64,000 nucleotides of DNA from the NCBI GenBank assembly GCA_031253955.1, contig JAIRVJ010000126.1:20342-84341 (forward strand), written 5' to 3'. This document shows, in pieces, positions 21,065-64,000 of this stretch. The notes under the pieces are model-generated. The model was given only the letters and a program-made list of their open reading frames with translations, made no database searches and was not told the DNA's origin. The translations under genes and the position numbers were made by a program. Numbering within the stretch: position 1 is the first letter of the stretch; every line of letters starts with the position of its first letter. The stretch comes from Burkholderiaceae bacterium. GTDB taxonomy: Bacteria > Pseudomonadota > Gammaproteobacteria > Burkholderiales > Burkholderiaceae_C.

Positions 21065-21179
21065 CCTTGCCCCGCGAAGGCAGGGGTTGGAATGGGGGCA
21101 AGCGGCGCTTAATGAAGAGCCTTGCGCAAATGCAAGCGCGACTGCCCCGACACCTGCCACCCCCGCGCGTGGGGGAAGG
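21065..21179. repeat. Degenerate family D doublet
   Basis: Hairpin plus TTGGAATGGGGGC arm; inverted hairpin arm ending at 21179. Confidence 0.6.
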
Positions 21180-24305: not shown

Positions 24306-24597
24306 GTAATTCCCGCGGAGGCGCATAGCCGCCAACTTGAGGTAAGTGCGCGGTTTTCTCCCTCCACCGCGGGCGGGGGAGGGCTGGGGTGGGGGCGCAC
24401 GGCGCTGAAAAAAGCACTGCGTTTACGATGCGCCGCTGCCCCCCATCCCTACCTTCCCCCGCAAGCGGGGGAAGGGGTAAAACGCCAGCGATTTGTCCTT
24501 AAGTTAGCGCCTATGCGCGAAAGCGGGAATCCACTGGGCCTTGGTCACCGCCGGGCGATGAACGCGCCGTATGGATTCCCGACTTCGCGGGAATGAC
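24306..24597. mobile_element. Class-2 family A doublet whose left REP is split by a 192-bp family D element (24324-24515)
   Basis: GTAATTCCCGCGGAGGCG | CATAGCCGCCAACTT ... AAGTTAGCGCCTATG | CGCGAAAGCGGGAATCCA. Confidence 0.75.
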
Positions 24598-33885: not shown

Positions 33886-33999
33886 TTTTCCCTCTCCCCT
33901 TTTGGGAAGAGGGTTAAGGAAAGGGGATGCGCAGCGCAAACGTTGTCACTCCAACCGGCGCCGCTGGCCCTCTCCCGCGAGCGGGAGAGGGAGAAAACC
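33886..33999. repeat. Family D variant doublet (CCCTCTCCC hairpins)
   Basis: Hairpins at 33890-913 and 33968-991, ending GAGAAAACC. Confidence 0.65.
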
Positions 34000-34066
34000 C
34001 GCCGGTTTGGGAAATCGTCATTCCCGCACACCTCACGCCGAGATCGTAAACACGTTCTAAGGGCCA

Positions 34067-34234
34067 ATCGCTGGCGTTTTGCCCCTTCCCCCGTTTGCGG
34101 GGGAAGGTTGGGATGGGGGCAGCAGCGCATCGCAAACGCGGTGTTTGTTGCAGCGCCGTGCGCCCCCACCCCAGCCCTCCCCCGCGCGCGGGGGAGGGAG
34201 AAAACCGCGCACTTGCCCCAGGTTAGCGCCTATG
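34067..34234. mobile_element. Family D element (inverted near-copy of the 24.35-kb element)
   Basis: About 150 bp align with the reverse complement of 24345-24495; ends AGGTTAGCGCCTATG|CGC. Confidence 0.8.
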
Positions 34235-34255
34235 CGCGCGAGCGGCCATGACGGA

Positions 34256-34711
34256 ATGATTTTCTCGATGCGACGTTCTTTCCCCTCCCCGCTCGCCAGC
34301 GCCCAAGCGCCGGTCGCATTCACGCTGCCGGTGCGCATTTATTGGGAAGACACCGATGCCGGCGGTATTGTGTTCTATGCCAATTACCTCAAGTTCTTCG
34401 AGCGCGCCCGCACCGAATGGCTGCGCGGCCTAGGCGTGGGCCAGCAAACGCTGCACGAGCGCAGCGGCGGCATGTTCGTGGTGAGCGAGGCGGCCCTCAA
34501 ATACCACCGCCCGGCGCGGCTGGACGATGAACTTGCCGTTACCGTCCGGCTCCAGCACACCGGCCAGGCCAGCCTGCTGCTCGCGCAGGAGGCGCTGCTG
34601 TGCGGCCAACAGTTGTGCTGCGAGGCCAGCATCCGCATCGGCTGGATCGACGCCGCGCGGATGAAGCCGGCGCGCATTCCGCCAGACGTTCTTCGCCTTG
34701 TTTGCCCATGA
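34256..34711 (+). CDS. ybgC: Tol-Pal-associated acyl-CoA thioesterase (start approximate)
   Basis: VRIYWEDTDAGGIVFYANYLKFFERARTEWLR. Confidence 0.92.
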   Translation: MIFSMRRSFPSPLASAQAPVAFTLPVRIYWEDTDAGGIVFYANYLKFFERARTEWLRGLGVGQQTLHERSGGMFVVSEAALKYHRPARLDDELAVTVRLQHTGQASLLLAQEALLCGQQLCCEASIRIGWIDAARMKPARIPPDVLRLVCP

Positions 34712-37103: not shown

Positions 37104-37227
37104 TTTTGCTCCCTCCCCCGCCTGCGGGGGAGGGTTGGGGTGGGGGCGCACGGCGCTGAAATAAACACCGGATTTGCGATGCGCCGCCGGCACCCATCCG
37201 ACCCTTCCCACCGCATACGGGGGAAGG
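37104..37227. mobile_element. Family D element
   Basis: Same arms and GCGCACGGCGCTGAAA...CGATGCGCCGC spacer as the 24.35-kb and 34.07-kb copies. Confidence 0.8.
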
Positions 37228-58169: not shown

Positions 58170-59651
58170 ATGTTCAAATTTCTTCGCTTTTCCTGCGCCG
58201 CCGCGTGGCTGACCGCGCTGTTGGGTGGTGGGCTGGGCGGTTGCGCCTTGCCCGCTTCGACCCATACCGAGGCCGACCGCAGGCCGGGATGGAGCGAAAC
58301 GCAATCCCAGCAATTCCAGCCCTCCGCCCCGCAGCAGTTCCAACTCGCCAACGGCCTGACGGTCATCGTCAAGCCTGACCACCGCTCCCCCACGGCGGTG
58401 CATATGCTGTGGCTGCGCGTGGGCGCTTATGACGAGGTGGACGGCACGAGCGGCGTGGCGCACGCGCTGGAGCACATGATGTTCAAGGGCAGCGACAAGC
58501 TGGGGCCGGGCGAGTTCTCGCGCCAGGTGGCGCTGCTGGGCGGGCGCGAGAACGCTTTCACCAGTTTCGACTACACCGCCTATTTCCAGCAAGTGCCGGT
58601 GGCCCATTTGCCCGACGTGATGGCACTGGAGGCCGAGCGCTTTGCGCATAGCCAATGGCCCGACGAGGAGTTCGCCAGGGAGCTGGAAGTCATCAAGGAA
58701 GAGCGCCGTATGCGCACCGAGGACAACCCGCGCGCCCTGCTGCGCGAGCAGTTGAACGCCGCCGCTTTCGTCGCCTCGCCCTACCGCCGCCCAGTGATCG
58801 GCTGGATGGGCGACCTGGAGGCATTGCAGGCCGATGACGTGCGCGCCTTCTGGCAACGCTGGTACGTGCCGGCCAACGCCGCGCTGGTGGTGGCCGGCGA
58901 CGTGGAGGCGGCGCAAGTGCTGGCCTGGGCGCAAAAGTATTACGGAAACATTCCCGCGCGCGCCGTGCCCGCGCGCAAGCCCCACACTGAGCCGGCGCAG
59001 ATAGGCTCGCGCCGGGTGGAAGTGAAAGCGCCGGCGGAGCAGGCGGCGGTGTATCTGGCCTTCCAGGCGCCGCGCCTCACGGGCGTAGAGCCTTCGCCTG
59101 ACAACGACGATGCGCTGGCGCTCACCGTGCTGGCCGCCGTGCTCGACGGCTACCAGGGCGCGCGTCTTGAACAGGCGCTCACGCAAGGGCCGGACCGCGT
59201 GGCCGACAGCGCCGACGCTGGCAACGGGCTGGTGGGGCGCGGGCCGCAACTGTTCATGCTCACCGGCGTGCCCGCGCAAGGCAAAACCGCCGCGCAGGTG
59301 GAAGCGGCGCTGCGCGCGCAAGTCAAGAAGGTAGCCGACGAAGGCGTGAACGAGGCCGAGCTGGCCCGCGTGAAAACGCAGTGGGTCGCCAGCCAGGTCT
59401 ATGAGCGCGATTCGCTCATGGCGCAGGCGATGAACCTGGGCAGCAACTGGGCGCAGAGCCTGCCGCTGAATCTGGACGACCGGCTGATCGAGCGGCTCAA
59501 AACCATCACCGCCGCGCAAGTACAGGCGGTGGCCCGCAAGTATTTCGGCGACGACCAGCTCACCGTGGCCACGCTGCTGCCGCAGCCGCGCGACCCCAAC
59601 GCGCCCCGGCGCAAACCGGCTGCGGGCGCGCGCATGGGAGATGTGCAATGA
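58170..59651 (+). CDS. M16 zinc peptidase, catalytic subunit (probable lipoprotein)
   Basis: LGGC lipobox, HALEH (HxxEH), NAFTS.DYT.Y. Confidence 0.9.
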   Translation: MFKFLRFSCAAAWLTALLGGGLGGCALPASTHTEADRRPGWSETQSQQFQPSAPQQFQLANGLTVIVKPDHRSPTAVHMLWLRVGAYDEVDGTSGVAHALEHMMFKGSDKLGPGEFSRQVALLGGRENAFTSFDYTAYFQQVPVAHLPDVMALEAERFAHSQWPDEEFARELEVIKEERRMRTEDNPRALLREQLNAAAFVASPYRRPVIGWMGDLEALQADDVRAFWQRWYVPANAALVVAGDVEAAQVLAWAQKYYGNIPARAVPARKPHTEPAQIGSRRVEVKAPAEQAAVYLAFQAPRLTGVEPSPDNDDALALTVLAAVLDGYQGARLEQALTQGPDRVADSADAGNGLVGRGPQLFMLTGVPAQGKTAAQVEAALRAQVKKVADEGVNEAELARVKTQWVASQVYERDSLMAQAMNLGSNWAQSLPLNLDDRLIERLKTITAAQVQAVARKYFGDDQLTVATLLPQPRDPNAPRRKPAAGARMGDVQ

Positions 59652-61045
59652 ACAAGGTTGTGCGTTTGACGTTGAGCGTTTTTTCTCCCTCTCCCACTTG
59701 CGGGAGAGGGGCAAGAAAACGAGCCATCGCCCTGGCCCTTCTAGCCAGCGCCGGCTTGGCGCAAGCCGCCCCGCCCATCCAGCACTGGACACAACCCAGC
59801 GGCGCGCGGGTGTATCTGGTGGAGAGCGCCGGCATTCCGATGCTGGACGTGCGCATCGACTTCGACGCCGGCGCGCGGCGCGACCCGCCGCCCCAAGCCG
59901 GCCTTGCCAGCGCCACCGCGCTAATGGCCGGCAAGGGCGTGGCCGCCCAAAGCGATGCGCCCGCGCTGGACGAAAACCAGCTTGGCGCGGCCTGGGCTGA
60001 TCTGGGCGCAAGCTTCGACGCCGACGCGGGCAACGAGCGCATGAGCTTTCACCTGCGCACGCTCACCGACCCCGCGCTGCTGCCGCAAAGCGTGGCGCTG
60101 GCCGCGCGCCAGTTGGCCGCGCCGGGCTTTCCCGCCGAAGTGTGGCAGCGCGAGCGCGAACGCCTGTCGGCGGCCATCCGCGAATCGCGCACGCGCCCCG
60201 GCACGGTGGCGGCCATCGCCTACGACCGCGCCGTGTACGGCCAGCACCCCTACGGCGACGAGACCACGCCCGAAACGCTGGCGGCCATTTCCGCGCCGGA
60301 CATGCAACGCTTTTACGCCGCGCACATCCAGCCCTGCCGCGCCAGGATGACGCTGGTAGGCGCCGTCACGCGCGCGCAGGCCGACGCGCTGGCGCGCCAA
60401 CTGCTGGCCGGCCTGCCCGCGCAGCAAACAGCCTGCCCGCCGCTGCCGGCGGTGCAGCCGGTGCAGCCGCTGGCGGCGGCGCGGGAAATCGACATCCCTT
60501 TTGATTCCGCCCAGGCTCATGTGCTGATGGGCCAGCCCGGTTACCGGCGCGCCGACCCCGATCACTTCGCGCTCTACGTGGGCAACTACATTCTGGGCGG
60601 CGGCGGCTTCGTCTCGCGCCTGACCGAAGAGGTGCGCGAAAAGCGCGGCCTGTCTTACAGCGTGTACAGCAACTTCGCGCCGGGGCTGGATGCGGGCGCC
60701 TTCACCATCGGCCTGCAAACCCGGCCCGACCAAGCCGCGCAAGCCTTGGCCCTGACGCGGCAGGTGCTGGCCGACTTTGTCGCTCATGGCCCGACGGACG
60801 CGGAAGTTAAAGCCGCGCAAGACAACCTCGTCAACGGCTTTGCCCTGCTGCTCGATTCCAACGCCAAGCTGCTGGGCAACGTCGCCAACATCGCCTGGAA
60901 CGATCTGCCGCTGGACTACCTGGACACCTGGAGCGAGCATGTGCGCCGCGTCACCGCCGCCGACGTGAAAGCCGCCTTCGCACGCAAAATCGACCCGGCG
61001 CGGCTGGTAACGGTGGTGGTGGGCGCGCAGGCCGGGGAGCGTTGA
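59648..61045 (+). CDS. M16 peptidase, non-catalytic partner
   Basis: ATGA overlap; lacks HxxEH; GGGGFVSRL.EEVREKRGLSY. Confidence 0.88.
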   Translation: MNKVVRLTLSVFSPSPTCGRGARKRAIALALLASAGLAQAAPPIQHWTQPSGARVYLVESAGIPMLDVRIDFDAGARRDPPPQAGLASATALMAGKGVAAQSDAPALDENQLGAAWADLGASFDADAGNERMSFHLRTLTDPALLPQSVALAARQLAAPGFPAEVWQRERERLSAAIRESRTRPGTVAAIAYDRAVYGQHPYGDETTPETLAAISAPDMQRFYAAHIQPCRARMTLVGAVTRAQADALARQLLAGLPAQQTACPPLPAVQPVQPLAAAREIDIPFDSAQAHVLMGQPGYRRADPDHFALYVGNYILGGGGFVSRLTEEVREKRGLSYSVYSNFAPGLDAGAFTIGLQTRPDQAAQALALTRQVLADFVAHGPTDAEVKAAQDNLVNGFALLLDSNAKLLGNVANIAWNDLPLDYLDTWSEHVRRVTAADVKAAFARKIDPARLVTVVVGAQAGER

Positions 61046-61051
61046 TTAGCT

Positions 61052-61667
61052 CCTTCCCCCGCACGCGGGGGAAGGTTGGGATGGGGGCGCGAACGGCGCT
61101 CGATAACGTCAAAGCACTCTCAAAATATCCGCAAGCACATCCTCTGTTTTCCCCAACACATCATTGTTCCAGTAGCGCAAGACGCGCCACCCGTCACGTT
61201 CAAACCAGGCATTGCGACTGGAATCGGCTGTTGGATTGTGCTGTCCGCCGTCGATTTCAACGATAAGCCGCTTTTCAATGCAGGCAAAGTCGGCAATGAA
61301 CGGACCGACGGGATGCTGCCTGCGGAATCTGCAATTGGCCAGTTGATGCTGGCGAAGGTGCCGCCACAACTGCTGTTCTGCATCCGTCATGTTGGCGCGC
61401 AATTTGCGCGCGAATTCTTTCTTGGCACCTTCGCGCATTCGGCTTGCCCCTGTTTCGGGTTTTCCCAAAGCCCACCCCCCCGCCTTCGCGGGGGCAGGCT
61501 CTTCTCTCACACGCGGGGAAAGAAAAAAGACAGTGGGTGGCTTTTCTCCCTCCTCCGCTTGCGGGGGAGGGCTGGGGTGGGGGCAGCGCAACGCTTGCAC
61601 CTGCGCAAGATTTTTAATCGAGTGCCGTTGGCCCCCATCCCCACCTTCCCCCGCGTGCGGGGGAAGG
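61052..61667. mobile_element. Candidate DUF559 element: arm-gene-arm followed by an arm-spacer-arm doublet
   Basis: Arms at 61052-88, 61470-522 (interrupted), 61548-84 and 61631-67. Confidence 0.6.
61109..61438 (-). CDS. DUF559 / Vsr-like endonuclease domain protein
   Basis: ARKLRANMTDAEQQLWRHLR, FRRQHPVGPFIADF.C, IEIDGGQH-like, GWRVLRYWN. Confidence 0.88.
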   Translation of the reverse strand: MREGAKKEFARKLRANMTDAEQQLWRHLRQHQLANCRFRRQHPVGPFIADFACIEKRLIVEIDGGQHNPTADSSRNAWFERDGWRVLRYWNNDVLGKTEDVLADILRVL

Positions 61668-61680
61668 AGAAAGACAGTTA

Positions 61681-62160
61681 TCAGCGCGGAACAAACCGCG
61701 CGCGGCAGCCGCGGCTGACCCAGAGGTTGCCGCGCCGGTCGGTGCCCCAGCTTTCGCCCTTGCGGCAGGTGGTTGAGGACAGTTGCTCGGCCAGCCGGGG
61801 CGTCCCACGGCGCGAATCCCACGAGCAGGTCACAGTGCGCTGGTCGTTGCTTTCGCAGACCACGCTGTAGTTACCGGGCCGGCCGGCTTCGGCAAATTCG
61901 CCCCGGCAGCCCTTGTCAACCCAGACCTTGCCGCCGCGCTGACCCCAGGTGCGGCCTTCCACGCACGAGGCATCGGAGACTTGACGCACAAGTTCAACCC
62001 GCTTGGCGGACGCGGGCATCCGGCATTCGTGGTATCTGCCGTCCTGGCTTTCACACAGCACGGAACGGGCGCGCGGACCTTGGGCCAAGGCGTATGGAGC
62101 AGCCAGCAGCGCACCGGTCGCGGCGGCGGTCAGCAACAGGGCGGAGAACAGTCGTTTCAT
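61681..62160 (-). CDS. Secreted DUF3011-like protein
   Basis: Signal peptide plus two repeats of CES...C...L..Q.S...C..G.TWG....WV..GCR..F. Confidence 0.75.
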   Translation of the reverse strand: MKRLFSALLLTAAATGALLAAPYALAQGPRARSVLCESQDGRYHECRMPASAKRVELVRQVSDASCVEGRTWGQRGGKVWVDKGCRGEFAEAGRPGNYSVVCESNDQRTVTCSWDSRRGTPRLAEQLSSTTCRKGESWGTDRRGNLWVSRGCRARFVPR

Positions 62161-62282
62161 GGTGGAAATTCCCTCGTAAAAAATGAGAATGGGCGCAGCG
62201 CGTCCAGTATGCAATGGTACACATCCCAGCCATTGCCGCCAAGCGCGCATATTGGAACAATCAAGCGCATTTTGCGCCGCTC

Positions 62283-62373
62283 GCCCCCACCCCAACCCTC
62301 CCCCGCACGCGGGGGAGGGAGAAAACCGCGCACTTACCCCAAGTTAGCGCCTATGCGCCTTCGCGGGGATGAC
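62283..62373. repeat. Single family D arm with terminal AAGTTAGCGCCTATG joined to a half family A REP
   Basis: Hairpin arm 62283-335; AAGTTAGCGCCTATG|CGCCTTCGCGGGGATGAC. Confidence 0.75.
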
Positions 62374-62413: not shown

Positions 62414-64000
62414 TCAACGCCCGCCTTTGAGCTTGGCGAAAGCCGAGGCCATTGCCGTGGGCGCGGGCCGTTGCGGGCGGCTTGCGCGCGGGGCGCGGGC
62501 GGGCGCGCCGGCGGCATCCAGGGGCGCATCGAGCTTCATGCTCAGGGTGATGCGTTTGCGCGGCGCATCGACTTCCAGCACCTTGACTTTCACGATCTGG
62601 CCGGTCTTGACGATCTCGCGCGCGTCGGCGACGAACTTGCGCGCCAACTGGCTCACGTGCACCAGCCCGTCCTGGTGCACGCCCAGATCGACGAAGGCGC
62701 CGAACTGGGCCACGTTGCTCACGGTGCCTTGCAGCACCATGCCCGGTTGCAGGTCGGCGATGTCTTGCACGTCTTCATTGAAACGCGCCACCTGAAAGCC
62801 GGGGCGCGGATCGCGTCCGGGTTTTTCCAGCTCCAGCAGAATGTCGCGCACGGTGACGGGGCCGAACCGGGCGTCGGCAAATTGTTCCGGCTTGAGGGGT
62901 CTGAGCAGTTCGGCGCGGCCCATCAACTGCTCGATGGGCTGACCGGTCTTGAGGATGATCTGCTCGACCACCGGATAGGTTTCGGGGTGCACGCCGGTCA
63001 TGTCCAGCGGGTTGTCGCCGTCGCGGATGCGCAGGAAACCGGCGCTTTGCTCGAAGGTTTTCGGCCCCAGACCACTCACTTGCAGCAACTGGCGCCGGTT
63101 GCCGAACGCGCCGTGCGCCTCGCGCCAGCGCACCAGCGTCTGCGCCACGGCGGGCGTGAGGCCCGAAACGCGCGCCAGCAGCGGCACGCTGGCGGTGTTC
63201 AGGTCGGCGCCGACGCGGTTGACACAGTCTTCCACCACGGCGTCCAGCGTGCGCGCCAGCGCGCTCTGGTTCACGTCGTGCTGATACTGGCCGACGCCGA
63301 TGCTCTTGGGGTCGATCTTCACCAGCTCGGCCAGGGGGTCTTGCAGCCGACGCGCGATGCTGACGGCCCCGCGCAAGCTCACGTCAAGCTCCGGCAACTC
63401 TTGGCTGGCGTATTCGCTGGCCGAATAAACGGACGCACCGGCTTCGCTGATAACTATTTTTTCAATAGCTATTTGCCCTGATACATTCTGTGTTTTCGCC
63501 TGTTTTTGCATCAACTTGATGAGGTCGCCCGCCAGCTTGTCGGTCTCGCGGCTGGCGGTGCCGTTGCCGATGGCGATCAGTTGCACGCCGTGCCGGGCCA
63601 CCAGCGCGGCCAGGGTGCGCAGCGCGCCTTCCCAATCGCGGCGCGGTTCGTGGGGATAGACGGTGGCGGTGGCGAGCAGCTTGCCGGTGGCATCGACCAC
63701 GGCAGCTTTCACGCCGGTGCGGATACCCGGATCCAGCCCCAGCACCGCCCGTGCGCCGGCGGGCGCGGCCAGCAGCAGATCGCGCAGGTTGTCGGCAAAG
63801 ACCTGAATGGCGACCTGCTCGGCCTGCTCGCGCAGGCGGGCGAGCAGATCGCGCTCGGTACTTAGCGAGAGCTTCACGCGCCAGGCCCAGGCCACGCACT
63901 TGCGCAGCAGATCGTCAGCAGCCCGCCCTTGGTGCGACCAGCCCAGATGCCGCGCGATGCGGCCTTCGGCCAGGGACGCAACCGCACCCTGCCCTTCCGG
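62414..64000 (-). CDS. tex: Tex RNA-binding transcriptional accessory protein (5' end outside the window)
   Basis: [42 protein letters not shown]1 domain; frame stays open to 64000. Confidence 0.95.

Follow-up and report, generated by a model that had tools for sequence, protein, structure and literature searches.

BoxC/PIT/TM repeats have been known since the 1990s. They are intergenic, occur in tens to hundreds of near-identical copies, often as inverted pairs of two subtypes, and are built of three successive blocks: pyrimidines, their purine complement and, past a loop of 3 nt, a mirror block rich in G, which gives G*G, A*A or T*A triads (a class II triplex motif, TM). DUF559, a very widespread family of small proteins that includes E. 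coli YcjD and the solved structure 3HRL, has to our knowledge no established function. Here we describe a DUF559 gene from a Burkholderiaceae genome (2.6 Mb, 64% G+C, 167 contigs), situated in a stretch of 64,000 nucleotides (hereafter the window; contig C150:20342-84341), that occupies the place of the 40-49 bp spacer between two inward-facing copies ("arms") of a short structured repeat. The locus appears to be a further, partly decayed member of an undescribed association between a repeat and a nuclease. In E. coli the described repeat, TM_ECO, has the consensus CCCTCNCCC-N3-6-GGGNGAGGG-N3-GGGNGAGGG, and its inverted pairs always join two subtypes (A+B); mobility functions were never found near TM_ECO, and published work associates neither a mobility function nor a partner gene with BoxC/PIT/TM repeats (Holder et al. 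2015, PMC4666352).

Two further systems invite comparison. Where repetitive extragenic palindromic sequences (REPs) and their doublets (REPINs) are accompanied by a REP-associated tyrosine transposase (RAYT), a single-copy enzyme gene lies, as here, between inverted short structured repeats while the genome holds many gene-less inverted doublets; again as here, the repeat variant goes with the enzyme clade and repeat sequences are genome-specific. RAYTs are mostly inherited vertically, whereas the DUF559 gene is patchy and non-syntenic, and the repeat considered here has a third, putatively triplex-forming block that REPs lack. RAYTs are moreover HUH/Y1 transposases (NF047646/PF01797), unrelated to the predicted hydrolytic Vsr-fold nuclease encoded here: not being an HUH/Y1 transposase, DUF559 cannot cut and rejoin DNA by RAYT chemistry. 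Homing endonuclease genes are either free-standing or element-borne, and PD-(D/E)XK homing enzymes include I-Ssp6803I. Like the gene described here, they are small nuclease genes that occupy a defined position in a recurring sequence, are patchily distributed and, as would be the case here, use host repair for copying, but here there is no intron or intein, and the putative target is not one conserved gene but a dispersed repeat. The initial annotation, made from the letters of the window, had likened the locus to a RAYT/REPIN pair with a different enzyme: the logic of the layout is indeed alike and the enzyme unrelated to RAYT, but the BoxC/PIT/TM identity of the arms went unrecognized, as did the genome's own RAYTs with their separate REPs.

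The intact arm (61050-61088, forward strand) lies 20 bp past the DUF559 stop codon and comprises a hairpin, CCTTCCCCCGC-AC-GCGGGGGAAGG, then TTGGGATGGGGGC (loop TTG, G-rich third block GGATGGGGGC), with the tail directed at the gene. As single-stranded DNA the hairpin folds at -12.3 kcal/mol (z -3.4); the folding tool models hairpins only and leaves the G-rich tail unpaired. The blocks of the arms read CCYTCCCCC / GGGGGARGG / GGRTGGGGG, with a GC-clamped 2-nt hairpin loop. If the second loop is taken as YTG, all 9 positions of block 3 mirror those of block 2, the purine strand of the hairpin, with A or T opposite each A, as the rule for class II (purine-motif) intrastrand triplexes requires. 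One position covaries over all three blocks (45 arms have C/G/G, 39 have T/A/A and 3 a discordant combination) as well as over blocks 2 and 3 alone (G/G in 70, A/A in 58, discordant in 3): the arms are of two covarying subtypes, A-type and G-type, the intact arm of the locus being A-type. Judged by sequence, the arms are a variant of the BoxC/PIT/TM G/C-rich intrastrand triplex motif. TM_ECO itself is ruled out, since its CCCTCNCCC and GGGNGAGGG blocks differ from those of the arms; a further difference from the described repeats is that in the source genome the repeat brackets a (putative) nuclease gene.

The window holds 13 matches to the hairpin pattern where 0.01 would be expected, and 9 to the tail where 0.69 would be; a generic triplex-motif finder recovers 10 arms there. 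The exact arm variant has 84 copies in the genome (a reversed control pattern has 0), and approximately 190 loose arms are found if three substitutions are allowed; the exact variant is essentially absent from the 40 relatives searched, and among them essentially private to the source genome. The arms are without terminator geometry, and an Rfam scan of the whole window matched no family. On the other side of the gene, upstream, lies the decayed arm (61470-61498, reverse strand). Alignment to relatives shows that its position is homologous to that of an intact arm in three loci (L049, L050 and L051). It had been annotated as interrupted; an arm is present, but the damage goes further than interruption: about 10 nt are deleted, blocks 2 and 3 are fused, and the structure is no longer significant (z -1.4).

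The gene (61109-61438, reverse strand) encodes 109 amino acids and is the only DUF559 copy in the genome. Its assignment, made initially without database searches, is confirmed: the protein matches PF04480 at E 4e-38 (130 bits where the gathering cut-off is 20.6, over profile positions 3-108 of 109), no other Pfam family exceeds threshold, MTES_1575 remains sub-threshold, and there is no Vsr match. It also matches PDB 3HRL ("endonuclease-like protein") at E 1.5e-26. Among 34 homologues D50, E61, Q66 and H67 are invariant and D63 is nearly so, and all five are present in the window protein, which is predicted to be a Vsr-fold nuclease of the PD-(D/E)XK type, with the fold and active-site pattern (D..ExD..QH) apparently common to Vsr and Vsr-like proteins such as Caulobacter VsrA and 3HRL. 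In two respects it is unlike these proteins: the gene is embedded in repeats, and no cytosine methyltransferase is found among its annotated neighbours (genes for an M16 peptidase and a DUF3011 protein; the open reading frame (ORF) at 62414-64000 carries no annotation). With neither a Vsr-family match nor a linked C5-cytosine methyltransferase among those neighbours, a canonical Vsr system was rejected.

Purifying selection acts on the DUF559 gene, for which comparison with two close homologues gives dN/dS of 0.09-0.10 (dS 0.8-0.9); over this distance the arm stems are identical and only the loops differ. Relative to the closest homologues a 1-nt insertion (CTTTGAC vs CTTGAC; 61109-61135) causes an early stop and the loss of a C-terminal tail of approximately 6 residues (DSIECC) that lies beyond the Pfam domain. 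The leader running from the upstream arm to the ATG (61439-61469, reverse strand; ..GGCAAGCCGAATG) is conserved in the cassettes of the closest relatives, and scanning around the gene for promoters gave no sigma-70-like candidate. An exact search of public assemblies for the protein gave no match; the closest homologue with a source name is from an Azonexus metagenome-assembled genome. Two departures from the family pattern were seen among homologues. In one protein (P0007, L051:3001-3348) the ExD motif reads VEINGG, the nearly invariant D63 being replaced by N; the enzyme may be catalytically impaired, yet its gene still has intact arms. One DUF559 clade (L006-L009; G022, G012, G001, G007) has the arm variant of the window but is without the otherwise invariant W90-N91 (RFAADAPF or RFSSNEPF vs RFWNNDVL).

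Comparison of the closest homologues (78-84% at the amino acid level) shows the gene in three other contexts: the hom/thrC region, sucD/nadE, and beside ShlB. All three have the same A-type arm approximately 25 bp upstream of the ATG, and two also have an inverted arm directly after the stop; the intact cassettes of the closest relatives carry A+A arms. In a four-way alignment, similarity spans arm, leader, gene and arm, and stops at the outer arm edges. The gene and its arms form a discrete cassette that is conserved and lies at non-syntenic sites, which is what one would expect if gene-less elements had a partner that bears the gene. Window positions 61050-61534 are one copy of this widespread cassette of approximately 0.45 kb, with one arm decayed. 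The pattern is opposite to that of a gene fixed in synteny and devoid of arms in relatives, which the initial annotation had named as grounds for abandoning the idea.

At the M16 locus the insertion is derived: DUF559 is absent near the M16 orthologue in all cases examined (0 of 18 relative genomes, 0 of 80 metagenome loci), and the downstream neighbour of M16 varies by species (dnaX in G005, another gene in G002, an rsmD-like gene in L087). The M16 orthologue is single-copy; DUF3011, which is multi-copy and not syntenic, was likewise found near M16 in 0 of the 80 metagenome loci. At the locus of the closest M16 orthologue (81% at the amino acid level) an array of a loop-hairpin TM variant (AATTCCCCTCC..GGAGGGGTGCCCGAAGGGCGGGGTGG; L087:3815-3975) lies downstream of M16, with no DUF559, and the same intergenic position is therefore taken by a different repeat family. 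In E. coli K-12, where TM_ECO occurs 23 times, the single DUF559 gene is ycjD; a BoxC element lies 165 bp from it and a partial hairpin at its stop codon, and the interval between ycjD and BoxC contains a second copy of 45 nt from the ycjD 3' end. The fabI-sapF interval is dimorphic in this species (L001:4150-4830; L084/L085): BoxC plus ycjD is present in 3,346/5,426 complete genomes, while others (e.g. the uropathogenic strain 536) have instead an unrelated 7.5-kb TetR/RND/OMF/MFS efflux island, similarity breaking approximately 40 bp before BoxC.

The initial annotation predicted that arms should be enriched at the flanks of DUF559 genes, and they are. Among the 40 relatives, a TM is found within 70 bp of 12/15 full-length DUF559 genes, mostly one on each side with tails toward the gene, and 2 more of these 15 have a variant TM whose second loop holds a small hairpin. 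Across the phylum (301 genomes, 80 with DUF559; flanks scored at the 30 best-scoring loci) a TM lies within 150 bp at 24/30 of these loci, in genomes ranging from 37% to 72% G+C. Control loci differ: TMs occur within 320 bp of only 1/16 RAYT or RAYT-like loci in the same genomes, none being bracketed (Fisher p 3.9e-5), and in 1-2 of 32 M16-downstream regions. DUF559 and arms are paired beyond chance, and the pairing is unrelated to RAYT.

The association extends to genome content. In the genus DUF559 is patchy (12/25 genomes), and 10/10 scorable DUF559-positive genomes are TM-rich compared to 5/14 of those without (p 0.002); in the phylum, DUF559 is present in 30/33 TM-rich genomes against a base rate of 80/301 (odds ratio 44, p 1.4e-16). 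TMs were counted genome-wide with the pattern GGRGRRGGNNNGGRKGRGG, which does not recover several variants (those with A in the third block, those of low GC and those with a loop hairpin). Genomes classed as "TM-poor" are therefore not necessarily free of TMs, and the co-occurrence estimate is conservative one way and uncertain the other. Protein clades also track arm variants within essentially one genus (GGGGGARGG; GGGAGAGGG/GGGGTGAGG; GGGAGAGGGG/GGGGAGAGG; GGAGGGG-hairpin-GGGGTGG), and genomes with two DUF559 paralogues (G015, G031) have a different arm variant around each. At three loci of the phylum sample (L054, L056 and L067) the arrangement is not a simple bracket: the DUF559 gene ends a tandem array of 4-9 TM units spaced approximately 80-280 bp apart.

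Gene-less pairs are abundant: the genome has 50 inward-facing arm pairs with a 40-49 bp spacer, and DUF559 is the only gene found between inward-facing arms within 1.5 kb. Of 51 inward pairs typed, 44 join an A-type with a G-type arm, and none is A+A. The unit next to the cassette (61542-61672) consists of a G-type arm (61548-61584, forward strand), a 46-bp spacer and an A-type arm (61631-61667, reverse strand), and folds back on itself whole (-45.8 kcal/mol, z -6.95). The triplex-motif finder marks three more pairs in the window: A+G at 24360-24475, A+G at 34084-34198, which is the centre of a longer palindromic mosaic ("fam2"), and G+A at 37111-37226, of which the second arm is degenerate. 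Sequence reading, pattern searches and the triplex-motif finder thus agree with the initial annotation on the arm at the 3' end of the gene and on the four gene-less pairs; its description of the arm pairs as identical does not hold, given the two covarying subtypes and the mixed typing of 44/51 pairs. A sequence abutting the arm on its inside, AGCGCCGT.CG, is present in both cassette and gene-less spacers as had been noted, but local alignment of spacer and cassette interior is weak (p ~0.18), the best match falling exactly at the arm edge. Of the marks of a MITE (non-autonomous transposon), the inverted arms are present, but no consistent target-site duplication was found at the ends of cassette or units, and no transposase is associated.

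Further pieces of repeat surround these units. Proceeding 5' from the DUF559 ATG, the decayed arm (61470-61498) is followed by a degenerate hairpin with flank (61500-61534; ..GGGGAAAGAAAAAAGACAGT), a 76% direct repeat of 61645-61678 at the outer end of the neighbouring unit, and then by the complete gene-less unit (61542-61672). The degenerate copies reported near 21.1, 33.9 and 62.3 kb all have a counterpart: remnants at 21087-21179 on the forward strand (tail 21087-21099, hairpin 21156-21179), a hairpin of the GGGAGAGGG-type variant recovered by pattern search at 33968-33991, and a solo G-type arm at 62283-62319 on the reverse strand, followed by a "fam2" outer module (AAGTTAGCGCCTATGCG..CGCGGGGATGACGA), the element extending to 62378. 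TM pairs also stand at the centre of longer palindromic mosaics (33990-34290 in the window, which is the unit C150:54423, and on other contigs). One mosaic, "fam2", occurs at least 10 times and carries TCGTCATTCCCGCG.. and AAGTTAGCGCCTATGCG as its outer modules; another, "fam1", is approximately 300 bp long with terminal inverted repeats TAAGAACGTGTTTRCGATC and has 6 copies. Their nested palindromes recall those of bacterial interspersed mosaic elements (BIMEs).

The cassette is flanked on the left by the M16 peptidase gene (59648-61045, forward strand) and on the right by the DUF3011 gene (61681-62163, reverse strand), beyond which lies the long ORF without annotation (62414-64000, reverse strand). 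Just past the junction of two M16 peptidase genes, within the longest ORF of the second, is a hairpin of another variant (CCCTCTCCCACTTGCGGGAGAGGG, 59687-59710); the N-terminal "SPSPTCGRGARK" of this ORF is probably translated repeat, with the true start further downstream.

What might join the gene to its arms? We judge it about an even chance that the putative nuclease has its arms as substrate and depends on host repair, in a partnership of the homing type or one resembling that of REPINs and RAYTs. The enzyme would recognize the arms or their unit (as duplex, hairpin, cruciform or triplex) and nick or cut there. Since a hydrolytic nuclease has no strand-joining chemistry, spread would have to be achieved by recombination or repair in the host, which would copy from another copy (homing or gene conversion) with the arms providing homology; such copying would place the gene inside arm pairs, and the nuclease may also keep gene-less units uniform and multiplying. 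Action of the nuclease on its arms would explain why the gene is always in the middle of an arm pair, why it is the sole cargo seen, and why TM-rich genomes carry DUF559. More tentatively, since we think it rather less than evenly likely, nucleases of the DUF559/YcjD family could be the long-missing partner enzymes of BoxC/PIT/TM repeats across bacteria: Vsr-fold hydrolases that trigger copying by host repair, home their own gene into arm pairs, and maintain and multiply the gene-less A+G units. It is a matter of speculation that the T:G and A:C mismatches, unavoidable when an A+G unit folds back, could be the feature read by a Vsr-like enzyme. The cassette of the window may no longer be mobile, even if its protein is active, because one arm has decayed and it has no recognizable promoter of its own.

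Several observations weigh against a nuclease acting on its arms. With one DUF559 gene and approximately 50 potential target units in the genome, efficient homing is not occurring now. The initial annotation saw in the cassette and the gene-less elements an autonomous/non-autonomous pair; a simple relation of this kind is unsupported, and an origin of the spacer by deletion within the cassette was rejected, because gene-less units are A+G and cassettes A+A and because the spacer is not significantly similar to the interior. Five TM-rich genomes of the same genus, two of them approximately 99-100% complete, are without DUF559, showing that the repeats can persist in its absence; in E. coli, BLAST still gives additional matches to near-identical BoxC copies in strains without the ycjD segment. 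One arm variant is common to two DUF559 clades that are only 45-50% identical, and the link between clade and arm could also come from simple co-inheritance of the cassette. The comparison of M16-DUF3011 loci suggested by the initial annotation marks the insertion as derived, but a clean empty allele was found neither there nor at the metagenome loci nor at E. coli fabI-sapF. Finally, Caulobacter VsrA, which contains DUF559, is linked to cytosine methylation and SOS and not to repeats: on deletion of a cytosine methyltransferase it brings about an SOS response, which shows DNA damage in vivo and which the authors read as mismatch repair (PMC12907096). This is the sole experimental work on a DUF559 protein found in our literature search, and among literature mentioning DUF559 we found no paper linking it to these repeats.

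The VsrA response fits a model in which DUF559 is a repair or defence nuclease for other substrates (e.g. T:G mismatches, as proposed for VsrA) and a passenger between arms that owe their movement or recombination to host functions. TM pairs, being abundant, would act as portable homology by which ordinary recombination could integrate an incoming cassette. At 37-60 bp the arms might suffice for RecA-mediated integration, TM families do persist in genomes without DUF559, and inheritance of the cassette as a unit would alone explain the link between protein clade and arm variant. We nevertheless consider a mere passenger less likely than a nuclease acting on its arms: a passive carrier should capture various genes, whereas none other is found between the inward-facing arms here and DUF559 is the recurrent cargo phylum-wide; its presence in 30/33 TM-rich genomes against a 27% base rate is not predicted by the model, and no cytosine methyltransferase is found among the annotated neighbours of the gene. 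Less probable still, in our estimation, is a host function without any role in mobility. Here the arms would be structural or regulatory DNA or RNA elements distributed genome-wide (insulators, mRNA stabilizers, protein-binding sites) and DUF559 a trans-acting binder serving replication, repair or chromosome structure, its gene autoregulated through the flanking copies. Strict structural covariation does indicate selection on the fold, the arms are better conserved than the synonymous sites of the gene, and the gene is single-copy and under purifying selection. Such a function sits poorly with a cassette found at non-syntenic sites even among close homologues, with a gene carried by 12/25 genomes of the genus, and with arms that lack terminator geometry and are accompanied by no detectable sigma-70 promoter; PIT/TM elements, moreover, showed no promoter, terminator or polymerase-blocking activity in published in vivo tests (PMC4666352).

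RAYTs supply the last alternative. The initial annotation reported none in the window, which is correct; in the genome two other contigs carry RAYT-family genes: one on C13 (189 bits vs NF047646) and one on C153 (88 bits), the end of C13 overlapping the start of C153. The C13 gene (C13:22893-23619, outside the window; 176 aa) is a bona fide RAYT with a small REP family of its own, GGTTGGGGnnAGCCnnAGGCGAACCCCAAC, at its flanks: of only 6 copies in the genome, 3 surround this gene. The RAYT-like gene of C153 encodes 231 aa. The arms might then be ordinary REP/REPIN sequences mobilized by these RAYTs, with DUF559 caught between two of them by chance or at a hot spot: one TM pair is located between the two RAYT genes, and strong RAYT matches within the genus are confined to TM-rich genomes. 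We give this almost no credence. The REP flanking the C13 RAYT is different from the arms, the RAYT of a relative is flanked by a GTAG-type REP, and the 300-bp mosaic element that contains the TM pair near the C13 RAYT stops short of that gene's own REP. A 245-aa RAYT-like gene is found in TM-poor genomes too, and RAYT-rich genomes outside the genus (G033, G035) are without TMs. RAYT was therefore rejected as partner or mobilizer of the arms, having its own separate REPs, with TMs near only 1/16 RAYT loci and bracketing none.

Some consequences do not depend on the nuclease being active on the repeats. DUF559 is among the annotations enriched for predicted inversions (PMC9881135), and the flanking inverted arms would explain its place among these targets; even if the nuclease is inactive on the repeats, the cassette accounts for this listing and for gene callers reading repeat-derived peptides into DUF559 termini. 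The physical and phylogenetic link, evident phylum-wide, merges two questions – that of the repeat and that of DUF559 – into one hypothesis that is testable in E. coli K-12. If a nuclease acting on its arms is the true explanation, then bacterial genomes would contain a second type of repeat-enzyme partnership, with a catalytic fold unlike that of RAYT and mechanistically independent of it, and DNA capable of forming triplexes or hairpins would have a role in vivo.

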